A stretch of DNA of 33,629 bases, from contig JAZSMW010000100.1 of NCBI GenBank assembly GCA_045536095.1, forward strand, positions 1 to 33,629. The letters run 5' to 3'. The stretch's first letter is position 1; each line of letters starts with the position of its first letter. The notes below the pieces were generated by a model. That model made no database searches. It saw nothing but the letters and a program-made list of their open reading frames with translations, and was not told the origin of the DNA. This DNA comes from Clostridia bacterium (GTDB taxonomy: Bacteria; Bacillota; Clostridia; Christensenellales; UBA1242). Position numbers and translations under genes: made by a program. Shown piece by piece: positions 2,611-33,629 of this stretch.

Positions 2611-3947
2611 TAAATTTTTATTTTTCTTGTTTTAGATGCCTTTGCATAACGTTTTAATTGTGCTTCTTTAAACTTGTTACTCTCTGCCTCTAATTCCCAT
2701 TTACGTTTTTGCCATTTGTAGCGCTTGTTTCCCCAAGCGTAGTCGTAAATTAAAACCATAAGACCTTGAACCAAATATATATAATAGTTCATAAAACGCC
2801 ACATTAACAAGCCCCAGAACACGGTTCCTTCTGGAAAAACACCCGTGAACACAGAAATAAACGCAATTTCACTCATACCCGTGCCCCCAGGAAGAGGAAT
2901 AAACCCCGAAGCCAAATCGATTAAAATTGAGAACACCCAAAACTTTAAAAAGATATTAAAGCCAGGCACTCCGCCCAACATTAAATATATAAAGTACGGA
3001 ATTGCAAAGTTGGCAACAAATTGCAAAAAGTTTAAAAGAATAAGCCCTGCAAATGCTTTAATGTTTTTTGTATAGGTTTTCATTGTTGTTTGAAAGCCCA
3101 TTACAGTATCCATAACTTTGTCGTACACTTTTTCATAGTTTTTAATTATTTTCATTTTTTGTAAAAGTTTTGTGCCTTTTACAACCAAAATTTTACCAAT
3201 ACGTTTACTTATGGATAAAATTAACACGCCAACAATCATTAAAAAGTTTAACGCAAAACCAACATACGATGCCACCGAAACAAGCGTGCCAGCATCTCCC
3301 AATTTGCCCGCAAAAATAGTGGCAAACAAACTTGTTACAAGCCATGCAATTTGAAAAACCACATACCTTGCAATTGGAATTGAAATTGATGTGCCAGGAT
3401 CTACCCCATGTTTGCTTAAATAAAACACCTGAAATGGTTGCCCACCCGTTGACATGGGGGTTATACAGTCGTAATACTTGCCTATTGCATTCATTTTATA
3501 ACACAAAAACATTCTTGTTCTTTTTGAACTTTGTTTTAATAAAACCGTTGCTCTAAATGTGTCTGAGGCCATAACAAAGCCAAATAGCGCAAAAATAATA
3601 AACCCATAATACCACTTAAAGTTGCCACTTGCTATAATTCTATCAAATGGTTCAACATTAGAATTTAAAACCTGAACCAACAAAATTACAACAACAACTG
3701 CAATGTTAATAATAAAAGTAAGCGCGGTTGTTATTTTTTTCTTTTTAGATTTTTGTTTTGCAACTTCTTGAGTTGCCTCACCCAATTTTTCATTAGCTAT
3801 TTCTTGTTTTGTTTGGTCTAAATCGTCTATACTTATTTGATTTTTTAATAAGTTTTGGTCGCCAAAAAGCGAGCCCGAATTAAACGAGCCCTTTTTAAAC
3901 CGTATGTTTTTATTTAATAAAACACTTTTAGTCGATTTTTTTGCCAT
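2610..3947 (-). CDS. Flippase-like / lysylphosphatidylglycerol-synthase TM-region family (UPF0104) membrane protein
   Basis: 445-aa polytopic ORF. The TGGQPFQVFYL and PLPGGTGMSE motifs are characteristic of the LPG_synthase_TM family. Confidence 0.6.
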   Translation of the reverse strand: MAKKSTKSVLLNKNIRFKKGSFNSGSLFGDQNLLKNQISIDDLDQTKQEIANEKLGEATQEVAKQKSKKKKITTALTFIINIAVVVVILLVQVLNSNVEPFDRIIASGNFKWYYGFIIFALFGFVMASDTFRATVLLKQSSKRTRMFLCYKMNAIGKYYDCITPMSTGGQPFQVFYLSKHGVDPGTSISIPIARYVVFQIAWLVTSLFATIFAGKLGDAGTLVSVASYVGFALNFLMIVGVLILSISKRIGKILVVKGTKLLQKMKIIKNYEKVYDKVMDTVMGFQTTMKTYTKNIKAFAGLILLNFLQFVANFAIPYFIYLMLGGVPGFNIFLKFWVFSILIDLASGFIPLPGGTGMSEIAFISVFTGVFPEGTVFWGLLMWRFMNYYIYLVQGLMVLIYDYAWGNKRYKWQKRKWELEAESNKFKEAQLKRYAKASKTRKIKI

Positions 3948-11467: not shown

Positions 11468-13276
11468 ATGAAACAAAATTTAAAAGACTTATACATCAAC
11501 TTTTTTATTTCTAAGGGGCACAAACAAATACCATCGGCAAGCGTTGTTCCAGAAAACGACCCTACTTGCCTATTTAACACTGCAGGCATGCAACCACTTG
11601 TTCCATATCTTTTAGGAGCAAAACATCCTCTTGGCACCAGATTGTGCGACTTTCAAAAATGTTTTAGGCTTACCGATTTAGACGAAGTTGGCGACAGTTA
11701 CCACCACACATTTTTTGAAATGCTTGGAAACTGGAGTTTGGGCGACTATTTTAAAAAAGAATCTATTACATGGAGTTACGAATTTTTAACAACAGTTTTA
11801 AACATAGATAAATCTAGATTAGCCTTTACCGTGTTTGAAGGAAACGAATATGTTAAAGCCGACACAGAAAGCGCTCAAATTTGGGAAAGCCTTGGGGTTA
11901 GTAAAGACCGAATTGCATTTTTGCCAGCCGAAGATAACTGGTGGCCTAGCATGGAGCAATTTGGCCCATGTGGAAGCGATACCGAAATTTTTTATTGGGT
12001 AGACAAAACAACTCCAGCTCCCGAAAAATTTGACCCAAGCGATAAGCGTTGGATGGAAATTTGGAACAATGTTTTTATGCAATACAATCATTTACCTAGC
12101 GGAGAATTTGTTCCACTAACCCAACAAAACGTAGACACAGGTATGGGCGTGGAGCGTACAACCGCCGTTCTTGCCGGGCTTAGCGACAACTACCAAACTA
12201 ACATTTGGAAACCAATTATTAACCAAATAGAAAAAATAAGTGGCAAATCTTACCAAGAAAACCAAAAGGCAATGCGCGTTGTTGCCGACCACATTCGTGC
12301 AATTGTTATGATAGCAAGTGATGATGCTGGCATTAAACCATCTAACACCGACCAAGGCTACATTTTAAGACGTTTAATTAGAAGAGTTATTCGTTTTGCA
12401 AAACAACTTGGCATAAACACAACAGAAAATTTTGAAGAAGAAATTATTAATATTATTGTTGACCAATTTAAAGATTATTACGAAGAGGTTGGCAGAAATG
12501 CAAATGTTGTTAAACAAGTGTTTAGTGAAGAAAAAAACAAATTTAACAAAACAATCGAAAACGGCTTAAAAGAATTTGAAAAAGTTCTTGCCGGATTTAG
12601 CCGTAAAGAAGAATTTTTAAGAAGAACCGACCCAAATGCAACTGTTGAGCGCATAATAACAGGAAAAACCGCATTTAATTTATACGAAACTTATGGATTC
12701 CCTATAGAAATGACCGAAGAACTTGCAAAAGAAAGAGGTGTTATGGTAGACACATCTAACTTTAAACAACTTTTTGCCGAGCACCAAGAAAAGTCTAAGG
12801 CAGGAAGTGAGCAAAAATTTAAGGGTGGTTTAAGTGATTCTAGCGAAGAAAATGCACGTCTTCACACAGCAACTCACCTAATGCAAGCCGGGCTTCAAAA
12901 ATTTGTAAGCGCCGACATTCGTCAAAAAGGCTCTAACATAACACCAGAGCGTTTACGCTTTGACTTTAATTGCGATCACAAACTCACCGAAGAAGAACTT
13001 AAACAAGTAGAAGATTTTGTTAACGATGCAATTGCTCAAAACATACCTGTTGAAGTTAGCGAAATGACAGTTGAAGAAGCCAAAGCTTCTGGTGCCCTTG
13101 GAGTGTTTGATAGCAGATACGGCGAAAAAGTAACCGTTTACACAATTGGCAACATTTCTAAAGAAATTTGTGGTGGACCACACGCAAAAAACACTGGCGA
13201 CCTTCACCACTTTAAAATTATTAAAGAAGAATCTTCTTCTAGCGGAATTAGAAGAATTAAAGCAATTTTAGATTAA
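11468..13276 (+). CDS. alaS: Alanine--tRNA ligase, short form (602 aa: catalytic and editing domains, no C-Ala domain)
   Basis: Motifs are GHKQIPSASVVPENDPTCLFNTAGM and FFEMLGNWSLGDYFK. Editing-site motifs are HTATHLM and CGGPHAKNTGD. The ORF ends at GIRRIKAILD, directly after the editing domain. RBS is GGAG. Confidence 0.85.
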   Translation: MKQNLKDLYINFFISKGHKQIPSASVVPENDPTCLFNTAGMQPLVPYLLGAKHPLGTRLCDFQKCFRLTDLDEVGDSYHHTFFEMLGNWSLGDYFKKESITWSYEFLTTVLNIDKSRLAFTVFEGNEYVKADTESAQIWESLGVSKDRIAFLPAEDNWWPSMEQFGPCGSDTEIFYWVDKTTPAPEKFDPSDKRWMEIWNNVFMQYNHLPSGEFVPLTQQNVDTGMGVERTTAVLAGLSDNYQTNIWKPIINQIEKISGKSYQENQKAMRVVADHIRAIVMIASDDAGIKPSNTDQGYILRRLIRRVIRFAKQLGINTTENFEEEIINIIVDQFKDYYEEVGRNANVVKQVFSEEKNKFNKTIENGLKEFEKVLAGFSRKEEFLRRTDPNATVERIITGKTAFNLYETYGFPIEMTEELAKERGVMVDTSNFKQLFAEHQEKSKAGSEQKFKGGLSDSSEENARLHTATHLMQAGLQKFVSADIRQKGSNITPERLRFDFNCDHKLTEEELKQVEDFVNDAIAQNIPVEVSEMTVEEAKASGALGVFDSRYGEKVTVYTIGNISKEICGGPHAKNTGDLHHFKIIKEESSSSGIRRIKAILD

Positions 13277-27061: not shown

Positions 27062-27823
27062 ATGAGTAAACAAGTTATAGATAAAAACAACATCAATTAT
27101 GATGTTTACAACGCCCTAAACTTAATGCATGAAGATTTGGGCGAGTGTTATTTAAAGCAAGGCTTTAACCCAATGGAAGAAGGCTTTGTTTTAGACGAAA
27201 ATTTTGTTATAGAGCGCTTTTTAAACGCAAAAACAAATTTAGAAATTCCATCGCCACACTTTGTTAATAATGGCGATAAAACCACTAAGCAAGCTCTAGA
27301 AAACAACCAAAAACACTGCGAAGAGAGTTTGGAACAAATAAACAGCATGCTTTTGTCAACCGAATTTTCTAAAGCACAAAAAGAAGAATTAAAAAAGCTA
27401 AAGTTATATTTGCTTTGCCGAATTGAGCTTGCCAATTTTTATTTAAAAAACTTTAAAAAGCAAAAAAATAAATTTAAGCTATACTTAAACATTAACTCTT
27501 TAAGCTGGAAAACTTCTGAACTTTTTGAAGATGCTTATAATGAATTATTTGATGCAAACCTTGCAATTGCCAACTATCTTGCCTTTGCAAAACAACACTC
27601 TAAGGCAATTAAAAAAGAATTAGAAAATGAAAAACTAAAACAAGAGGCAAAACAAATAATTGCACAAAACCAACAAATTAAAAAAGAGCAAGTTGTTAAA
27701 CCTGCAAAAACTAATGTGCAAAAACAGCCAACCTCAAAAGCAACAACAAAAAACACTCAACAAGTTGCCCCTTTAAAAGAACGGGCTTCTAAAACAAAAA
27801 AAGAACCAACATTAGAGCGTTAA
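27062..27823 (+). CDS. Hypothetical protein with a Lys/Gln-rich C-terminal tail
   Basis: ORF-track 27014 is a TTG start that lies inside the promoter. I prefer ATG 27062 (MSKQVIDKNN). I recognise no family. Confidence 0.5.
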   Translation: MSKQVIDKNNINYDVYNALNLMHEDLGECYLKQGFNPMEEGFVLDENFVIERFLNAKTNLEIPSPHFVNNGDKTTKQALENNQKHCEESLEQINSMLLSTEFSKAQKEELKKLKLYLLCRIELANFYLKNFKKQKNKFKLYLNINSLSWKTSELFEDAYNELFDANLAIANYLAFAKQHSKAIKKELENEKLKQEAKQIIAQNQQIKKEQVVKPAKTNVQKQPTSKATTKNTQQVAPLKERASKTKKEPTLER

Positions 27824-27858
27824 TACTCTTAAAATAAAATAATTTTCAACCAACAACA

Positions 27859-27892
27859 AAAACCGCACCCCTTAGGATGCGGTTTGTTTTTT
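27859..27892 (+). terminator. Intrinsic terminator of the 27062..27823 gene
   Basis: AAACCGCA...TGCGGTTT stem followed by GTTTTTT. Confidence 0.7.
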
Positions 27893-27940
27893 ACATTGCT
27901 CATTAATAATGATTAACGCAAAAAAAATGGCATGCGCCAT

Positions 27941-28219
27941 TTATTTTATTTCTGGCAACACAAATGCGTCAACCAACATACATATTCCATTTGGAAATTT
28001 TTTAATAGTGTCTACCAACTTGCTTGGCCTATCTATTTCCATATCATATTTTTTTGCATACGAACAATAAACTTTTAAATAATCTTTGGCAAACAAAAAA
28101 GCCTCAACAAGCGTTTTGCCGTCGGTAAAAATGTTTAAATCAGGAAATACAACAGTGTAATCTGTTTCACCGTCTTCTTGAAAGAAAACTGCAGGAAAAA
28201 TATATTGTTCCATAATCAC
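27941..28219 (-). CDS. HicB-like (UPF0150) antitoxin-fold protein with no HicA partner seen
   Basis: 92 aa. YIFPAVFFQEDGETDYTVVFPDLNIFTDGKTLVEAFLFAKDYL matches the HicB N-terminal fold pattern. RBS is AGGGGTG. Confidence 0.55.
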   Translation of the reverse strand: MIMEQYIFPAVFFQEDGETDYTVVFPDLNIFTDGKTLVEAFLFAKDYLKVYCSYAKKYDMEIDRPSKLVDTIKKFPNGICMLVDAFVLPEIK

Positions 28220-28452
28220 CCCTAAAGGCTAAATTTAGCCACTTTTAGTTATTATACATAAATAATAACACAATTTTTTATTTATACAAAACAATTTATC
28301 AAATTACAAAAAAAAGATATATAATATTTTATTTAAAAAAATCTTGAATATTCGTTTTTACAAAGTTTAACAGTTTTAATTAATTACAACATAAATAAGC
28401 TGGTCAAAACTTATGGCGCTAAGCCAATTGATAGATTCCTTTGGTACGGGCA

Positions 28453-28507
28453 GATATCGCATTTAATCTGAGAATAAATTCTCTTGTAAATGCGATATTT
28501 CCTACTA
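28453..28507 (+). repeat. Hairpin repeat, copy B (intact)
   Basis: ATATCGCATTTA (28454-28465) pairs perfectly with TAAATGCGATAT (28487-28498). The inner stem is GAGAA-TAAA-TTCTC. The 23-nt core at 28482-28504 is identical to 15055-15077. Confidence 0.7.
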
Positions 28508-28510
28508 TAT

Positions 28511-28553
28511 AAAAAAAAGCGCACTGTCCCATTAACAGTGCGTAATTTTTTTT
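28511..28553. terminator. Bidirectional terminator (serves the 69-aa gene on the minus strand)
   Basis: A8, then CGCACTGT-CCCATTA-ACAGTGCG, then TAA-T8. Confidence 0.75.
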
Positions 28554-28557
28554 ATAA

Positions 28558-28767
28558 TTATTTTACTAAGCCACCTTCGTTTTCTTTAACTTTAAAAGGC
28601 TCGTTAACGCTTTTTTTAGAAACATATTTTTCAAAAACGCCAACCTCTTTAGATGTGTTTGGAACAACAGGTTCCTCACTTATAATTTTGCTTACACCTA
28701 CTCTAACAATTTCTCCATTAGCTAAAATTTCAAAACCTGAATAAGTTGATATTTTTACATTTGGCAT
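28558..28767 (-). CDS. Small hypothetical protein (69 aa)
   Basis: A strong RBS (AGGAGGG) lies 9 nt upstream of the ATG, and a clean terminator follows. I recognise no family. Confidence 0.55.
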   Translation of the reverse strand: MPNVKISTYSGFEILANGEIVRVGVSKIISEEPVVPNTSKEVGVFEKYVSKKSVNEPFKVKENEGGLVK

Positions 28768-28974
28768 AACTAATACCCTCCTGCTTTATGCCCATATAAT
28801 AGCACATAATTTTTTGTTTGTAAATACCTTTTTGTGTTTTTTTAATTTTTTTTTAAATTCCTTTAAATATAAAGCAATTAAGCATATAAAAATGTGCAAA
28901 AATTACAAAAAAATTAACAATAAATGCATATTTTTTGTTGTTTTTCACAAACTAAACGTGTAAAGGAGGAAGTT

Positions 28975-29130
28975 ATGCGTAGATTTAATTCTGGTGATTT
29001 AGCACCACAATCTGGCAAATACGCAGTTTGCGATAAAAGCGGACGCAGAATGGCAACCGTAAATATGCAAAAAGGCGATCATTTGCCTCCAACACAATCT
29101 AGCGAATATTACTACGAATATTGCGAATAA
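28975..29130 (+). CDS. Small YjzC-like protein (51 aa)
   Basis: The internal ATG is preceded by AAGGAGG. MRRFNSGDLAPQSGKYAVCD...QKGDHLPPTQ resembles the YjzC family pattern from memory. The ORF-track start at 28924 lacks an RBS. Confidence 0.5.
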   Translation: MRRFNSGDLAPQSGKYAVCDKSGRRMATVNMQKGDHLPPTQSSEYYYEYCE

Positions 29131-29135
29131 TTAAA

Positions 29136-29166
29136 AATTAAGGCTGATTTATCGGCCTTAATTTTT
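29136..29166 (+). terminator. Intrinsic terminator of the YjzC-like gene
   Basis: AATTAAGGC (29136-29144) pairs with GCCTTAATT (29155-29163), followed by TTT. Confidence 0.7.
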
Positions 29167-29211
29167 GTTTTATTATGTTTTTTTAACTTTTTACGCGTTG
29201 TTAACCTTTTG

Positions 29212-30549
29212 CTATTTACCCAAACAAAATTTTGCAAAAATTCCCGAAATAATATCTTCATTTTCGGTTTGCCCTGTTACTTTTCCTAATGTTTGCCACA
29301 AGTCTTTTGCAAGCATGTCTAATATGTCAATTGTTTGATTATCGCACTCATCAATTATTTGTTCGGCCTTTTGCTTTGCCTCACTAAGTGCAAGAATGTG
29401 TCTTTGGTTTGTTATAATAAGTGCCGAAAAGTCTATTTTTTTGCTAACTGCAAGGCTAATTATTTGGTCTTTAATTTCATTGATATTTGTTTTGTTAAGA
29501 GCCGAAATTTCAATTCCTTTTAGCCCAGTTGTGTTTTTGGCAATGTCGGTTTTATTAATAATGTAAATAACTTTGCTATCTTTTAGCAATTTTAAAATTT
29601 GTTCATCTTCCTCAGTTATTCCCGTGTGGGCGTCAACAACCGCCAAAACAATGTTTGCCCCCTTTATGCTCTCTTTAGATTTTTCTATACCAATTTTTTC
29701 TACCTCGTCGGCACTTTCATGAATGCCGGCTGTGTCTATAAAATTTATTTTTAAACCATTGTGGATTATTGTTTCTTGTATGGTATCACGGGTTGTTCCT
29801 TTAACACTTGTAACAATTGCCCTGTCCTCACCAATTAGAGCATTTAAAAGACTACTTTTACCTGCGTTTGGTTTTCCAACAATTGCAACGTTTATGCCAG
29901 ATTTAATAATTTTGCCATCACCCGCAGTTTGCAATAGTTGGTTAAGCTGTTCTTTAACATTAATTGCCACTTGCTTTAAGTTGTTTGCGCCAAGCGCTTC
30001 GTCGTCATGTTCTGGGTAGTCTATTGCAACTTCTAGGTTAACAATTGCATCTTTTATACTCTCTTGCATGGCAGTGACTTTTGCAAAAAGTTCTCCCTTT
30101 AAAAGTTTTGAATTTGCCTTGAGTTCTGCATCCGAAGTTGCATTAATTGTGTCTATAATGCCTTCTGCCTCATCTAAGCTAATTTTACCATTAATAAAAG
30201 CGCGCTGCGTAAACTCTCCATTTTGTGCAAGCGTTGCTCCTGCATTTAAGCAAGCCTCTAAAATTTTTTGTGTTAAACGCTCTCCACCATGACATTGAAA
30301 TTCTACAACTTCTTCACCAGTGTAAGAATATGGCGCCTTAAAATATACCATTAAACATTTTTCTGTTATTCCATCATAATTTATTTTGCCCAAATACATA
30401 TACCTAGGTAAAATTTCAAAAGGTTTTTTACAAAATTCAAAAATAGACTTAGCAATTTTTAAACTATTGCTACCACTAAGCCTAATTACTGAAATCCCGC
30501 CACTTCCTAGTGGTGTGCTAATTTGTGCTATTGTACTTAAATTTTCCAT
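29212..30549 (-). CDS. mnmE: tRNA modification GTPase MnmE (TrmE)
   Basis: 445 aa. The N-terminal TPLGSGGISVIRLSG motif, the G1 motif GKPNAGKSSLLNAL and the C-terminal FCLGK motif are present. Confidence 0.95.
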   Translation of the reverse strand: MENLSTIAQISTPLGSGGISVIRLSGSNSLKIAKSIFEFCKKPFEILPRYMYLGKINYDGITEKCLMVYFKAPYSYTGEEVVEFQCHGGERLTQKILEACLNAGATLAQNGEFTQRAFINGKISLDEAEGIIDTINATSDAELKANSKLLKGELFAKVTAMQESIKDAIVNLEVAIDYPEHDDEALGANNLKQVAINVKEQLNQLLQTAGDGKIIKSGINVAIVGKPNAGKSSLLNALIGEDRAIVTSVKGTTRDTIQETIIHNGLKINFIDTAGIHESADEVEKIGIEKSKESIKGANIVLAVVDAHTGITEEDEQILKLLKDSKVIYIINKTDIAKNTTGLKGIEISALNKTNINEIKDQIISLAVSKKIDFSALIITNQRHILALSEAKQKAEQIIDECDNQTIDILDMLAKDLWQTLGKVTGQTENEDIISGIFAKFCLGK

Positions 30550-30555
30550 AAGTTA

Positions 30556-30564
30556 ATTATAACA
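30556..30564 (-). promoter_or_regulatory. Extended -10 promoter abutting the mnmE start codon (leaderless prediction)
   Basis: Minus strand reads TGT-TATAAT (30564-30556), then TAACTT, then ATG (30549). No SD is present. The -35 (GATACA) is weak. Confidence 0.5.
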
Positions 30565-30695
30565 CACTTTTTTCATTTTGTATCATTTATTTTCATCACA
30601 ATCATTTTTTTCTTGATTTTGCGTGCATTATATACCAAGCGAAATATTTATCATCACTACAAAACACTGCCCAACTCCTACTATCATTTGTAAAC

Positions 30696-30740
30696 GGTGG
30701 ACATTTGGTGGACACGTCAAAATTTTAAAAAGTGTCCACC
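30696..30740. repeat. Motif cluster 1: GGTGGACA x2 direct plus TGTCCACC inverted (DnaA-box-like)
   Basis: GGTGGACA at 30696-30703 and 30707-30714. TGTCCACC at 30733-30740. Confidence 0.8.
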
Positions 30741-30747
30741 AACAAAA

Positions 30748-30785
30748 CAAAAAAAACACCCAAACATTCAAATTGTCCGAGTGTT
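30748..30785 (-). terminator. Intrinsic terminator of the 144-aa gene
   Basis: Minus-strand RNA reads AACACUC...GGGUGUU, with one U-G wobble that would be a C-A mismatch on the plus strand. A U-run follows. Confidence 0.6.
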
Positions 30786-30791
30786 ATTTCT

Positions 30792-31226
30792 CTATTTAGA
30801 TAGTGAATCAATTTCAGCTAAAAAGTTCTGATATTCTTTATTTTGTTCTTGTTCATACTTTTTATATAACAAATCAATTTTTTCTTGGATTTCTTTTGGC
30901 AATTCAAGCTGTACAACAGATGGCCTAGGCCCTCTTGTAGCCGTACGAGATCTTGTACTCTCCACTTTTTTCCCGTATTTAATTATTATTTGATTGATTA
31001 TATCAAAACCTTTTTGATTGTCTTTTTTATAATAATCTTTTAACAAATCTATTAATATTCCTGCATATTTTTGACTAATTTCGTGCATTTCTCGTTCTGC
31101 TGGATTACTAGCAAATGAATTGTATTGTTCAGTCGTTTCATTTCCCAAAGCCCAAACATACCAGTTTACATATTTTCTAAAATTATTTCTTCTTACTTTT
31201 TCTTTTAATTTATCTACAATTTTCAT
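30792..31226 (-). CDS. Hypothetical protein (144 aa)
   Basis: RBS is AAGGAGA. It has its own promoter and terminator. I recognise no family. It is flanked by the 8-mer clusters. Confidence 0.55.
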   Translation of the reverse strand: MKIVDKLKEKVRRNNFRKYVNWYVWALGNETTEQYNSFASNPAEREMHEISQKYAGILIDLLKDYYKKDNQKGFDIINQIIIKYGKKVESTRSRTATRGPRPSVVQLELPKEIQEKIDLLYKKYEQEQNKEYQNFLAEIDSLSK

Positions 31227-31251
31227 AGTTTCTCCTTAACTTTAAGATAAG

Positions 31252-31280
31252 TATATCATAAAAATTTTGTCTTTGCAATA
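31252..31280 (-). promoter_or_regulatory. Promoter of the 144-aa gene
   Basis: Minus strand reads TTGCAA (31280-31275), a 17-nt spacer, then TATACT (31257-31252). The spacer end TTTTTATGATATACT closely resembles the LRR-gene promoter. Confidence 0.6.
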
Positions 31281-31390
31281 GTGAAATACTAAAAGGTGCA
31301 ATGAAAAATTAATTGCAACAAAAAGATGTTGTGGAGGTCGCTTAAAAAGTGCCGTTCCAGCCGAAATAATTACTCAAATTTTACCACTTT

Positions 31391-31446
31391 TGTCCACCAG
31401 TGAAATCCGCGGTGGACATTTCGTGGACATTTTGGGTTGGTGGACA
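31391..31446. repeat. Motif cluster 2a: TGTCCACC followed by three copies of (G)GTGGACA
   Basis: TGTCCACC at 31391-31398. GGTGGACA at 31411-31418. cGTGGACA at 31422-31429. GGTGGACA at 31439-31446. Confidence 0.8.
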
Positions 31447-31459
31447 CGTTTTAAAAATT

Positions 31460-31488
31460 AAAAAGTGCCGTATTATCGGGCACTTTTT
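31460..31488. terminator. Hairpin with flanking A and T runs (terminator-like, bidirectional)
   Basis: AAAAAGTGCCG-TATTAT-CGGGCACTTTTT with one bulged G. Confidence 0.5.
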
Positions 31489-31554
31489 AATTTTAAACTA
31501 TTCAATTCCATCATAATTATATTATAACACACCAAAAACATTTTTCAAAGCTTA

Positions 31555-31632
31555 TTGGCACTAGGTGGCATTTTTTACCCTGTTTTGCGTACTTAATATA
31601 CCAACAGAAACACTTTTTGGCACTAGGTGGCA
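31555..31632 (+). repeat. Two identical 16-mers TTGGCACTAGGTGGCA, 62 bp apart
   Basis: Copies at 31555-31570 and 31617-31632. Each contains TGGCA twice with a 10-nt start-to-start period. Confidence 0.8.
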
Positions 31633-31633
31633 C

Positions 31634-31706
31634 TTGTCCACACCCACAGACGCAACCCCAAGGTGGACAAAATGTGGACAACAAAATTTTTCTAATTTTG
31701 TCCACC
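31634..31706. repeat. Motif cluster 2b: four DnaA-box-like 9-mers forming two inverted pairs
   Basis: TTGTCCACA at 31634-31642. GGTGGACAA at 31662-31670. TGTGGACAA at 31673-31681 (reverse complement TTGTCCACA). TTGTCCACC at 31698-31706. Confidence 0.8.
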
Positions 31707-31797
31707 ATAGCAAGAAAAAGACACTCAAAATTTAATCTGAATGTCTTGTAATTTATTTACTTAATGCATCTTCATTGTTATTTTTTGATTTTCTGTA

Positions 31798-33429
31798 TTA
31801 TTCAACTTCTTTAATTTCTTCCTTACTAAATATTGGTTTTGTAAAATCTGGAAGCCAATCTTTTTTATATCGTGCTTCTTTAATCTGTCCTGTTGGTTGT
31901 GGTATTATTATACCTCGCATTATTTCCTTTACGGCGTTCTTATTTTTAGTTCCATTCACTAACAAATCGATTAACTTTTTTTGTCTTGATTGAATTTGTG
32001 TTAATTGCTCTTGACTTGCAGAAGAATTTGGCAAATCTCTTGCCTTGTCAATAAGTCCACTTAAAGCTGTTCCTATTTGCAAAAGCATGTCCTCATCAAA
32101 TCTTGCACCATAAGGAAAATAAACAGAATATCCTCTCTCGTATTCGTATGGAGCATATACTGAATAATTATCCATCTCTTTTTTAAAGAATGTTACACTT
32201 GTGAAAAATTCTTCGTATTCTTTTGAATATCTTGTATTTGATATTGGTTGCAAATGGTCTGTCACAGATATATGACTATCTGCAGATATCGATATATCGC
32301 AAACAACATCATTAGTATAACCACCGCATTTATAGTCCCTTTTTTCGCAATTTAAAAGCCAATTTAATGTTCCGCCACTAGGAATTAGTGTTTGTTTATA
32401 GTATTCTTCTCTTTCTTGTGAAACTACACTTTTCTGATATTCTTGCATTACTGGGATATCAATAGTTATTGTTTCCTGTTTTTCTCTATCAACAAAAGTA
32501 ACTTTGCCTTTATAACCACTTTTCAAAATAGTTTGAATTGTGTCTTGATTATACGCTATCACTTCTTTTACACCGACCAAAGCGTCGGGTTTAATTATGA
32601 TTTTCCCATGAGTCCATAAAATTTTATGTCCTAAAATATCGGTTTCTCTATATTTTATACCCAACTCATCATATAATGCTTTTTTATCTTCATCACTAAT
32701 ATCTTCTTCAAGATATTCAATTTCGTCCAAATTAAAATCATCGCCCATTTCTGCTAGATATTGTTTTTCGATTTCTTGTTGTTCTTTGATTACATCTTGC
32801 AAATATTTTTTATCATCATCAAGGAATGTTATTGTTAAGTTTTTACAGCCAGCAAAAGCTGCTGTATCAACCAACTCTACACTTGCAGGGATTTCAATAG
32901 ATTGTAAGTTTTCACAACCAGCAAAGGCATATCCGGATATAAACCAACAACCTTCAGGAATGTTTATTGTGGTTAAATTTTTACATTCTCTAAAAGCTGC
33001 ATTAGCAATAGTTGTGGTAGTTTGTGGCAATTTTATACTTTTTAGATTTGCACATTCCTGATAACCATCAACCGTTTTCATAGTTTCTGCATTTTCTAAT
33101 CCTTTGATTTCTGTTAAATTATCACAACCTTGAAAGGCAAATGGGTGAATAAATCTTACACCTTCATGCATTATTACAGTATGTAAATTTTTAAGATGTG
33201 AAAAGGCGAACATGTTTATACTTTTAATATGTTCTGGAACTATAAAAGCACCATCTTGTATGTTTTGTGGATAAACTTTTCTTAATAATTCTCCTTCAAC
33301 TGATATTCCGTCATACATACTTGTTGTTTGTTGTTCCATAGGAATAATTGTAGCTTCTTCCACAATTTCTGATTTTTTATCATTATTTTCATGTTTATGT
33401 TTCTTTTTAAAATAATCAAATATTCCCAT
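31798..33429 (-). CDS. BspA-type leucine-rich-repeat (LRR_5) protein with an unassigned ~330-aa C-terminal region and no signal peptide
   Basis: 543 aa. Repeats of the form AF.GC.NL..I.IP (FAFQGCDNLTEI, AAFRECKNLTTINIP, YAFAGCENLQSIEIP, AAFAGCKNLTITF) are present. The N-terminus MGIFDYFKKKHKHENNDKK is hydrophilic. RBS is AGGAG. Confidence 0.8.
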   Translation of the reverse strand: MGIFDYFKKKHKHENNDKKSEIVEEATIIPMEQQTTSMYDGISVEGELLRKVYPQNIQDGAFIVPEHIKSINMFAFSHLKNLHTVIMHEGVRFIHPFAFQGCDNLTEIKGLENAETMKTVDGYQECANLKSIKLPQTTTTIANAAFRECKNLTTINIPEGCWFISGYAFAGCENLQSIEIPASVELVDTAAFAGCKNLTITFLDDDKKYLQDVIKEQQEIEKQYLAEMGDDFNLDEIEYLEEDISDEDKKALYDELGIKYRETDILGHKILWTHGKIIIKPDALVGVKEVIAYNQDTIQTILKSGYKGKVTFVDREKQETITIDIPVMQEYQKSVVSQEREEYYKQTLIPSGGTLNWLLNCEKRDYKCGGYTNDVVCDISISADSHISVTDHLQPISNTRYSKEYEEFFTSVTFFKKEMDNYSVYAPYEYERGYSVYFPYGARFDEDMLLQIGTALSGLIDKARDLPNSSASQEQLTQIQSRQKKLIDLLVNGTKNKNAVKEIMRGIIIPQPTGQIKEARYKKDWLPDFTKPIFSKEEIKEVE

Positions 33430-33453
33430 ATTTACTCCTATAAATTTTATATT

Positions 33454-33482
33454 AGTATATCATATAAAAAGAGCAAATACAA
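33454..33482 (-). promoter_or_regulatory. Promoter of the LRR gene
   Basis: Minus strand reads TTGTAT (33482-33477), a 17-nt spacer, then TATACT (33459-33454). The spacer end is TTTTTATATGATATACT. Confidence 0.55.
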
Positions 33483-33617
33483 TACTTAAATCACAAAAGG
33501 CCAACTGAAGTTTTAAATACAGAAAAAACGATATGAAACCATTTTAAAGTTATTTACATTAGACAAGTTTCAATAAGTTCCGTCTGGTGCAAAAAAAATT
33601 CCTGAAAACTACCTTTT

Positions 33618-33626
33618 TTGTCCACC
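33618..33626. repeat. Another TTGTCCACC box at the window edge
   Basis: TTTTTTGTCCACCGG has the same flank pattern as TTTTGTCCACCAG at 31388-31400. A further cluster may continue beyond the window. Confidence 0.6.
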
Positions 33627-33629
33627 GGC

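Follow-up and report, generated by a model that had tools for sequence, protein, structure and literature searches.

Box clusters upstream of mnmE in an uncultured Clostridia lineage as putative integrase arm-type sites marking two tandem integrase-less cassettes

The stretch of DNA analysed here, called the window below, is the whole of contig JAZSMW010000100.1 (33,629 nt; assembly GCA_045536095.1). It is ordinary chromosomal DNA of an uncultured Clostridia lineage with a GC content of about 32%, and its genes include mfd, pth, alaS, aspS, a dnaB/dnaD-like gene together with dnaI, gmk, ksgA, tatD, a HicB-like gene, and mnmE. Our subject is a short box, TGTCCACC or in the opposite orientation GGTGGACA, which is repeated in clusters between the start of mnmE and the end of the contig, where two accessory genes are also located. 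Read along the minus strand, the order is as follows: a leucine-rich-repeat (LRR) gene with its terminator, cluster 3, promoter copy B extending to an ATG (31514), a hairpin terminator, cluster 2, a promoter, a gene for a 144-aa protein, its terminator, cluster 1, promoter copy A, and mnmE. The positions of all features are given in Table 1.

Table 1. Features of the box-bearing region upstream of mnmE (strand: + or -; a dot marks features given without strand).
Feature	Position	Strand	Basis and remarks
mnmE	29212..30549	-	Pfam MnmE domains; chromosomal gene, with the insertion at its 5′ end
Junction A (inferred), cassette-1 arm to mnmE	30530..30570	.	Window–L204 homology, like that of copy A with copy B, stops at the ATG
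Copy A, distal-arm module	30547..30745	-	Promoter-like sites toward mnmE (one at 30654-30627) plus cluster 1
Cluster 1	30696..30740	.	GGTGGACA-N3-GGTGGACA (30696-30714), 18 nt, inverted TGTCCACC (30733-30740)
144-aa gene, cassette-1 cargo	30792..31226	-	Own promoter 31278-31250, terminator 30785-30755 (promoter/terminator scan)
Cluster 2	31391..31446	.	TGTCCACC, 14 nt between 7-mer cores, GTGGACA-N4-GTGGACA, then a further GGTGGACA
Hairpin, bidirectional terminator between arm and junction	31451..31497	.	19-bp arms, 9-nt loop, 95% complementary
Junction B (inferred), core between cassette-2 arm and cassette-1 arm	31500..31530	.	Copy-B homology stops at ATG 31514-31512
Copy B, distal-arm module	31512..31710	-	Promoter-like sites pointing into the hairpin terminator
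TTGGCACTAGGTGGCA, two perfect copies	31555-31570, 31617-31632	+	Each with GGTGGCA
Cluster 3	31634..31706	.	TTGTCCACA, 19 nt, GGTGGACA-N3-TGTGGACA, 18 nt, TGTCCACC
543-aa BspA-type leucine-rich-repeat gene, cassette-2 cargo	31798..33429	-	Pfam LRR_5; own promoter, terminator 31747-31718
First box TGTCCACC of the putative next integrase-side arm	33619..33626	+	Counterpart of 31391-31398; cut by the contig end 33629

The 8-mer TGTCCACC/GGTGGACA was counted nine times in the window against 0.43 expected, a number reached by none of 100 shuffled sequences. Its 7-mer core, TGTCCAC, is present in 13 copies (1.67 expected), and 12 of these fall within 30696–33626, with starts at 30696, 30707, 30733, 31391, 31411, 31422/3, 31439, 31634/5, 31662, 31673, 31698/9, and 33618/9; the thirteenth lies within a coding sequence (CDS) at 2285–2291, and one-mismatch variants of the core elsewhere in the window are at background level. 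An earlier note on this DNA, made from the letters alone, had reported twelve copies next to mnmE and a single further copy at 2285 inside a CDS, four inverted pairs with spacers of 12–19 nt, and two TTGTCCACA copies matching the DnaA box at eight of nine positions. All of these observations were reproduced, with coordinates right to within 1 nt and the two TTGTCCACA copies at 31634 and 31673, and the identity of the neighbouring gene as mnmE is borne out by its Pfam domains.

The arrangement of the boxes is regular. Three tandem pairs (30696/30707, 31411/31422, and 31662/31673) keep an exact 11-bp phase, and each cluster has a gene terminator on one side and the promoter of the following gene on the other, lying at approximately −75 to −220. 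Clusters 1 and 3 share the same geometry at an offset of 966 nt, and the similarity extends beyond the boxes, the segments 30547–30745 and 31512–31710 being diverged copies with 51% ungapped identity against a background of 28 ± 3%; this value exceeds the best of 20,000 random pairs (46%), and there is no indel across the boxes. The AT-rich stretch between clusters 2 and 3 consists of the hairpin terminator and promoter-like sites, one of which is strong (31548–31521; 11 of 12 consensus positions and a TG extension). At the right-hand edge, the contig ends inside a box cluster, and the flank ACCTTTTTTGTCCACC of the box at 33619 resembles ACCACTTTTGTCCACC at 31391.

When viral contigs were scanned for the tandem pair GTGGACA-N4-GTGGACA, at least 120 loci were obtained. 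Among the matches listed, the pair lies no more than 400 nt from the 3′ end of a tyrosine-integrase open reading frame (ORF) at 49 of 120 loci, compared with 6.4 for random positions in the same loci; a second scan for the pair gave 21 of 65 near the integrase 3′ end versus 2.2 for random positions. The complete architecture of cluster 2, TGTCCAC-N13/14-GTGGACA-N4-GTGGACA (21 bases), was found in 37 viral contigs, whereas the number expected by chance is, on a rough estimate, below one. A homologous integrase is located just upstream and on the same strand in 21 of the 37, with three more at 459 nt, and an integrase is upstream in 21 of the 24 architecture contigs with a GC content below 50%.

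Seven of these integrases were scanned with Pfam and have Arm-DNA-bind_4, Phage_int_SAM_3, and Phage_integrase domains. In low-GC gut contigs, such a three-domain integrase is followed by the inverted box, a gap of 13 or 14 nt, and the tandem pair; the corresponding gap in cluster 2 is 14 nt. Where the sequence continues, a second, equally oriented pair appears 222–318 nt further downstream, often with an inverted box behind it. The same plan recurs in the window: its second pair is located at +234/+245 and its inverted box at +270, in agreement with the phage-type attachment sites (attP) that carry an integrase. The junction near 31514 has the pairs 31411/31422 and 31662/31673, oriented alike, on its two sides.

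The same integrase family gave 1,400 tblastn hits in phage records. In the C. difficile phage phiCD24-1, int is directly followed by TGCCACC-N14-GGTGGCA-N4-GGTGGCA, about 310 nt, and then GGTGGCA-N4-GGTGGCA-N10-TGCCACC, and Paenibacillus phage Tadhana has the same plan with the box GGTGGCT. These variant boxes indicate that the attP plan is conserved while the box sequence varies with the integrase. In metagenome contigs L206, L241, and L236, the pair lies between the integrase and a tRNA-Leu gene, and in L211 it lies about 170 nt from a tRNA-Ser gene, possibly within a coding region. The distance from pair to core is 83–89 nt in the window, in L273-type elements, and in L233 (described below), and about 44 nt in L318, so that it is no fixed constant; at junction B it amounts to 83–85 nt past the tandem pair, like the target gene's end in L273-type elements.

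Some further occurrences of the box should be recorded here. The sequence TTGGCACTAGGTGGCA is present in two perfect direct copies, 62 nt apart, in the internal att-like site only, and the copy adjacent to mnmE has none. Each copy includes GGTGGCA, which is the arm box of phiCD24-1, oriented like the tandem pairs; these copies may be recognised by an integrase of a second specificity or by an excisionase. In enterobacterial-type prophages (46–51% GC; L086, L089, L091, L098, and about 40 similar viral loci), a TGTCCAC pair lies within the last eight codons of the integrase gene, and the arm sites there double as coding sequence (C-terminal tail ...SVHTVSTVE). In L258/L259 (approximately 267–290 in L259), a GTGGACA pair is located about 50 nt upstream of an ORF whose N-terminus, judged by eye, resembles that of a Bacteroidota-type integrase. 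The GTGGACA box may be common to very distant integrase families.

Comparison with relatives locates the box-bearing DNA at a break in gene order. At about 70% MnmE identity, the relatives share the genes downstream of mnmE (which are syntenic with L002, L006, and L007) and nothing upstream, where they have other genes (a recF-like gene, an acyltransferase, and others). This means that synteny breaks at the mnmE start codon, and the att-like sites enclose accessory DNA at this break. The 144-aa and LRR genes are absent from the mnmE relatives, no TGTCCAC cluster was found upstream of mnmE in the loci of 80 relatives, and no cluster of the canonical DnaA box TTATCCACA is present upstream of mnmE in the ten closest ones.

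Of two further loci, the first is L204 (logan SRR27608106), which carries a 144-aa gene 97% identical to that of the window. Conservation there takes in cluster 1, promoter module, and leader and reaches to the ATG, but the gene that follows is a HemW-like radical-SAM gene instead of mnmE. Because the cluster accompanies the 144-aa gene even where another gene comes next, cluster 1 belongs to the 3′ flank of the inserted gene and not to mnmE. Compared with the window, L204 has 134 nt inserted (approximately 790–925) in the arm's conserved promoter block. The sequences of the window and of L204 both stop at a box cluster, as would be expected of a multi-copy repeat that breaks assemblies.

The second locus is L233 (SAMEA104315433 coassembly, 390–2950), a 2.5-kb integrase-less unit with a single LRR_5/Listeria-Bacteroides-repeat gene, inserted in the 3′ end of secA and flanked by the same pairs. 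The end of secA is duplicated (51 of 60 nt identical) and provided with a replacement terminator; the equivalent of the hairpin follows directly after the secA stop codon, and arm and hairpin together show 65% identity to cluster 2 over 130 nt. L233 is an independent example of an integrase-less single-gene unit.

The insertion also appears to have changed the start of mnmE. The copy of the distal arm adjacent to mnmE takes the place of the native upstream region, while the internal copy points into the hairpin terminator. The N-terminus of the encoded protein, MENLS-TIAQIS, is three residues longer than the M-x-TIAQIS of relatives, and the first codons (MENLS) may be supplied by the inserted unit. 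No Shine-Dalgarno sequence was found before mnmE (30549–30575), and in copy A an extended −10 element, TGTTATAAT, ends 7 nt 5′ of the ATG, on the basis of which the mnmE transcript may be leaderless.

From the observed motif statistics, the match of the architecture, its association with integrases, the break in synteny, and the fact that cluster 1 is linked to its cassette and not to mnmE, we conclude that the boxes are probably arm-type sites of a phage-type tyrosine integrase, which mark two tandem integrase-less cassettes in front of mnmE. Region 31391–31706 would then be a complete attP-like site composed of an integrase-side arm (cluster 2, a putative counterpart of the arm that adjoins the integrase gene in complete elements), a core near 31514, and a distal arm (cluster 3, the putative distal arm of cassette 2). 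Cluster 1, read as the putative distal arm of cassette 1 and having the layout of the distal arms of integrase-bearing attP sites, would be a half site: a second distal arm that abuts mnmE, 966 nt to the left of cluster 3. The box at 33619 would open the next integrase-side arm. Such an arrangement is the structure expected from two elements that integrated successively at one site.

According to this model, the first unit would span 30550–31514 (about 965 bp) with the 144-aa gene, and the second would run from 31514 to about 33740 (about 2.2 kb by extrapolation) with the BspA-type LRR gene. Both arm types (clusters 1 and 2) flank cassette 1. Cassette 1 contains only the 144-aa ORF and the sequenced part of cassette 2 only the LRR ORF; neither contains integration or transfer genes, and we call the units integrase-less because no integrase or integrase remnant is present in the window. 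The 144-aa protein has no match in Pfam or PHROGs and only three homologues among 5.8 billion proteins.

By analogy with the integrase family, the N-terminal domain of the integrase would bind the arm boxes, and the core-binding and catalytic domains would hold the core, so that bridging between arm and core would assemble the recombination complex. An integrase encoded elsewhere could act in trans to integrate, excise, or stack units that bear both arm types. The distal arm of each unit carries outward-reading promoter-like sites, and the copy next to mnmE would now drive mnmE and supply its first codons. The binding of a protein to the boxes, the exact point of crossover, and the present-day mobility of the units are inferred parts of this scheme.

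Elements of this kind are already known, as tandem integrase-less elements resembling cis-mobilizable elements (CIMEs). The main points of interest are the very small single-gene form and a practical one taken up below, the likeness of GTGGACA arm boxes to DnaA-box clusters.

Several observations weigh against this interpretation and should be set beside it. There is no integrase gene in the window, and a tblastn search with a little over 20 integrases of the family found no significant remnant. The sole direct repeat at both junctions is 21 nt long (30547–30567 and 31512–31532) with 86% identity, and junctions A and B of the window and that of L204 have in common only TTATG and an A/T-rich run. 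Neither an empty site nor a circular junction was seen, and the att region had no blastn match among 50,697 phage records. Homologues of both cargo genes at 84–90% identity, and in a wider range those of the 144-aa gene at 71–85% and of the LRR gene at 65–87%, occur in other contexts without the GTGGACA box; accordingly, the cassette form is seen only in this lineage, L204, and L233, and the arms do not always travel with these genes. The box is also one or two mismatches from the DnaA box, and a DnaA-box cluster upstream of thdF/mnmE exists in B. subtilis; the boxes may incidentally bind DnaA. A short similarity between a frame across cluster 2 (LSTSEIRGGHFVD) and the C-terminal tail of the L360 integrase (LSTRENCGGQTVD) is only suggestive.

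The earlier note had named first a DnaA-box cluster or an origin-like region; the boxes would then be either part of oriC or an origin-proximal titration or regulatory cluster. The precedent that it cited is real, since in B. subtilis such a cluster of DnaA boxes lies between thdF (mnmE) and jag (PMC3245932), and GC skew together with gene orientation places the origin somewhere to the right of the window. We nevertheless consider this explanation unlikely. Apart from the two TTGTCCACA copies, which are within one mismatch of TTATCCACA, the other 10 of the 12 copies have at least two mismatches, and the G at box position 3 is invariant, both as the note had observed; canonical TTATCCACA is not clustered here, and its only perfect copy in the window is inside the LRR CDS. 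The 33.6-kb contig carries no dnaA, as had been stated, and no dnaN either, and its GC skew, the computation of which the note had proposed, is negative throughout without a switch. The comparison with relatives, likewise proposed there, gave no support for an origin, given the absence of a box cluster upstream of mnmE in the 80 loci; in L204 the cluster accompanies the 144-aa gene, and it is beside integrase genes that this exact layout of several boxes occurs. An apparent DnaA-box cluster in one relative (L009) proved to be inside a CDS. The second suggestion of the note, a dedicated DNA-binding protein other than DnaA, was right in its direction, but the protein is most likely no unknown one: the boxes are probably bound by the arm-binding domain of a tyrosine integrase of phage type and would act in recombination, not in replication.

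If that protein were a dedicated chromosomal transcription factor, the boxes would be operators that co-regulate mnmE, the 144-aa gene, and the LRR gene. Their placement between a terminator and the next promoter, together with the 11-bp phasing that puts them on one face of the helix, would suit this role; however, such sites are found neither elsewhere in the 30 kb nor upstream of mnmE in relatives, the duplication covers about 200 nt including promoter and leader, which goes beyond an operator alone, and the layout matches integrase attP sites box for box, so that we give the operator model quite a low probability. Still less probable, in our view, are iterons of an integrated plasmid or phage-satellite origin bound by an initiator that the element encodes. 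No Rep, primase, or helicase gene adjoins the clusters, and the AT-rich stretch that they flank, which would otherwise speak for an origin, is a terminator hairpin and a promoter copy; moreover, the spacing fits the attP plan and not that of contiguous iterons. Arrays of the same box that may be compared with an origin do occur in L136 (IMGVR_UViG_2562617174_000010, 3180–3425), where 250 nt of AT-rich DNA with ten GTGGACA boxes adjoin the downstream side of a DUF927 (helicase-type) gene of 829 aa, and in L105 (IMGVR_UViG_3300033149_004415, 320–725), with eleven TGTCCACA boxes around very AT-rich DNA. The array of L136 has the appearance of a replication origin of satellite or plasmid type in which the same box is used, and in the phage contig L105 the boxes form two oppositely oriented sets flanking a TA-repeat stretch, which is origin-like and has no adjoining integrase. 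An invertible DNA switch or a miniature transposon is hardly credible. It would rely on the 24-nt inverted repeats 30720–30743/31436–31459, which are 92% complementary and bracket the 144-aa gene with its promoter, but the repeat is merely a box with its A/T-rich flank, found in both arm types; the orientation is the same in L204, flipping a gene that has its own promoter would have no obvious regulatory effect, and no transposase or invertase gene is nearby.

Three other candidates were discarded. A search of 27500–33629 against Rfam at a permissive threshold gave only three weak hits, none of them within the clusters and each far short of its gathering score, for which reason an RNA explanation was dropped. 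A tRNA-targeted island finds no tRNA in the window, and an integron cassette array is contradicted by the absence of an integrase of any kind from the window, by the only long hairpin being a terminator, and by the repeats being 8-mers spread over about 300 bp.

Returning to the integrase arm sites, a bolder form of the interpretation can be put forward, which we regard as speculative and rather doubtful: that the units are a working cassette system and not decayed relics. In this case, gut Clostridia would possess single-gene units of about 1–2.5 kb (with cargo including BspA-type LRR surface proteins), each with its own promoter, terminator, and full arm-core-arm attP, moved and stacked in trans by a phage-type integrase at gene ends (mnmE 5′, secA 3′, and hemW-like 5′). 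The only hint of mobilization is that the same cassette is in front of a different gene in L204. If the proposal is true, the system would be the functional counterpart of integron cassettes with att sites of the lambda/P2 type as its basis, and the unit adjoining the target gene would re-supply the promoter of that gene.

It should be noted that, being one or two mismatches from the DnaA box and clustered around AT-rich DNA, GTGGACA arm boxes can pass for oriC or DnaA-box clusters when genomes are scanned. A practical means of telling the two apart is offered by the layout of the boxes, and in the present case a false origin call is removed. The locus further suggests how the transcription of mnmE, an essential housekeeping gene, can come to depend on a promoter imported by a mobile unit, and it adds very small integrase-less units with surface-protein (LRR) genes in uncultured gut Clostridia; if these units move, they would provide a route to rapid variation of cell-surface repertoires.

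Observations on other parts of the window concern three points. The ORF for a HicB-like antitoxin (92 aa; region 27941–29211) has no recognisable HicA partner; after it come about 1 kb in which coding density is low and then the 3′ end of mnmE. The alanyl-tRNA synthetase ORF (11468–13276) encodes only 602 aa and is directly followed by aspS; an alanyl-tRNA synthetase is expected to be longer than this. Exact-sequence look-ups of three window proteins, aimed at extension of the contig, gave no match.

Among known systems, CIMEs and tandem accretion offer a matching description of the units as a whole, as elements that have lost their integration genes, kept their att sites, and become stacked at one chromosomal site (PMC5704250). 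The CIMEs of the ICESt1/ICESt3 family of Streptococcus thermophilus resemble the window in lacking integration genes and in their tandem stacking, and their att sites would have counterparts in the att-like sites of the window. The window units, in contrast, are far smaller (about 1 and 2.2 kb), carry one gene with its own promoter and terminator, and lie at the 5′ end of a gene, to which they would supply a promoter, and not at a 3′ end, with no partner integrative and conjugative element or phage in view. Integron arrays have in common with the window promoter-proximal single-gene units in one orientation, each ending in a recombination site. The differences are that the window has no IntI gene, that each of its units has its own promoter, and that its sites, which extend over about 300 bp, would be of the lambda/P2 kind, with an arm-core-arm structure in double-stranded DNA, as opposed to single-stranded attC hairpins. 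The thdF-jag cluster of B. subtilis likewise places short DnaA-box-like repeats immediately upstream of mnmE, whereas the boxes of the window are mostly poor DnaA boxes, are not conserved in relatives, are tied to an inserted gene, and follow an attP layout.

With regard to the box itself, the published consensus of the arm sites of P2-type integrases, tgTGGaCa, equals the box of the window, and in enterobacterial prophages the P2-type pair overlaps the last codons of int. P2-type integrases differ in belonging to the Int_N subfamily, in having the pair opposite in orientation to int, and in their Proteobacteria hosts; the resemblance to P2 concerns the recognised sequence, and common descent of the element is not implied by it. 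In the phages with Arm-DNA-bind_4 (PF14657) integrases, such as phiCD24-1 and Tadhana, the integrase lies directly upstream of the first arm, whereas in the window this place is occupied by a small cargo gene on the opposite strand and the contig has no integrase, and the box also differs, being GGTGGACA in the window, GGTGGCA in phiCD24-1, and GGTGGCT in Tadhana. The base composition suggests similar hosts, namely low-GC gut Clostridia, and the plan is shared in full: an inverted box, 13–14 nt, a tandem pair at 11-bp phase, 220–320 nt, a second tandem pair, and an inverted box.

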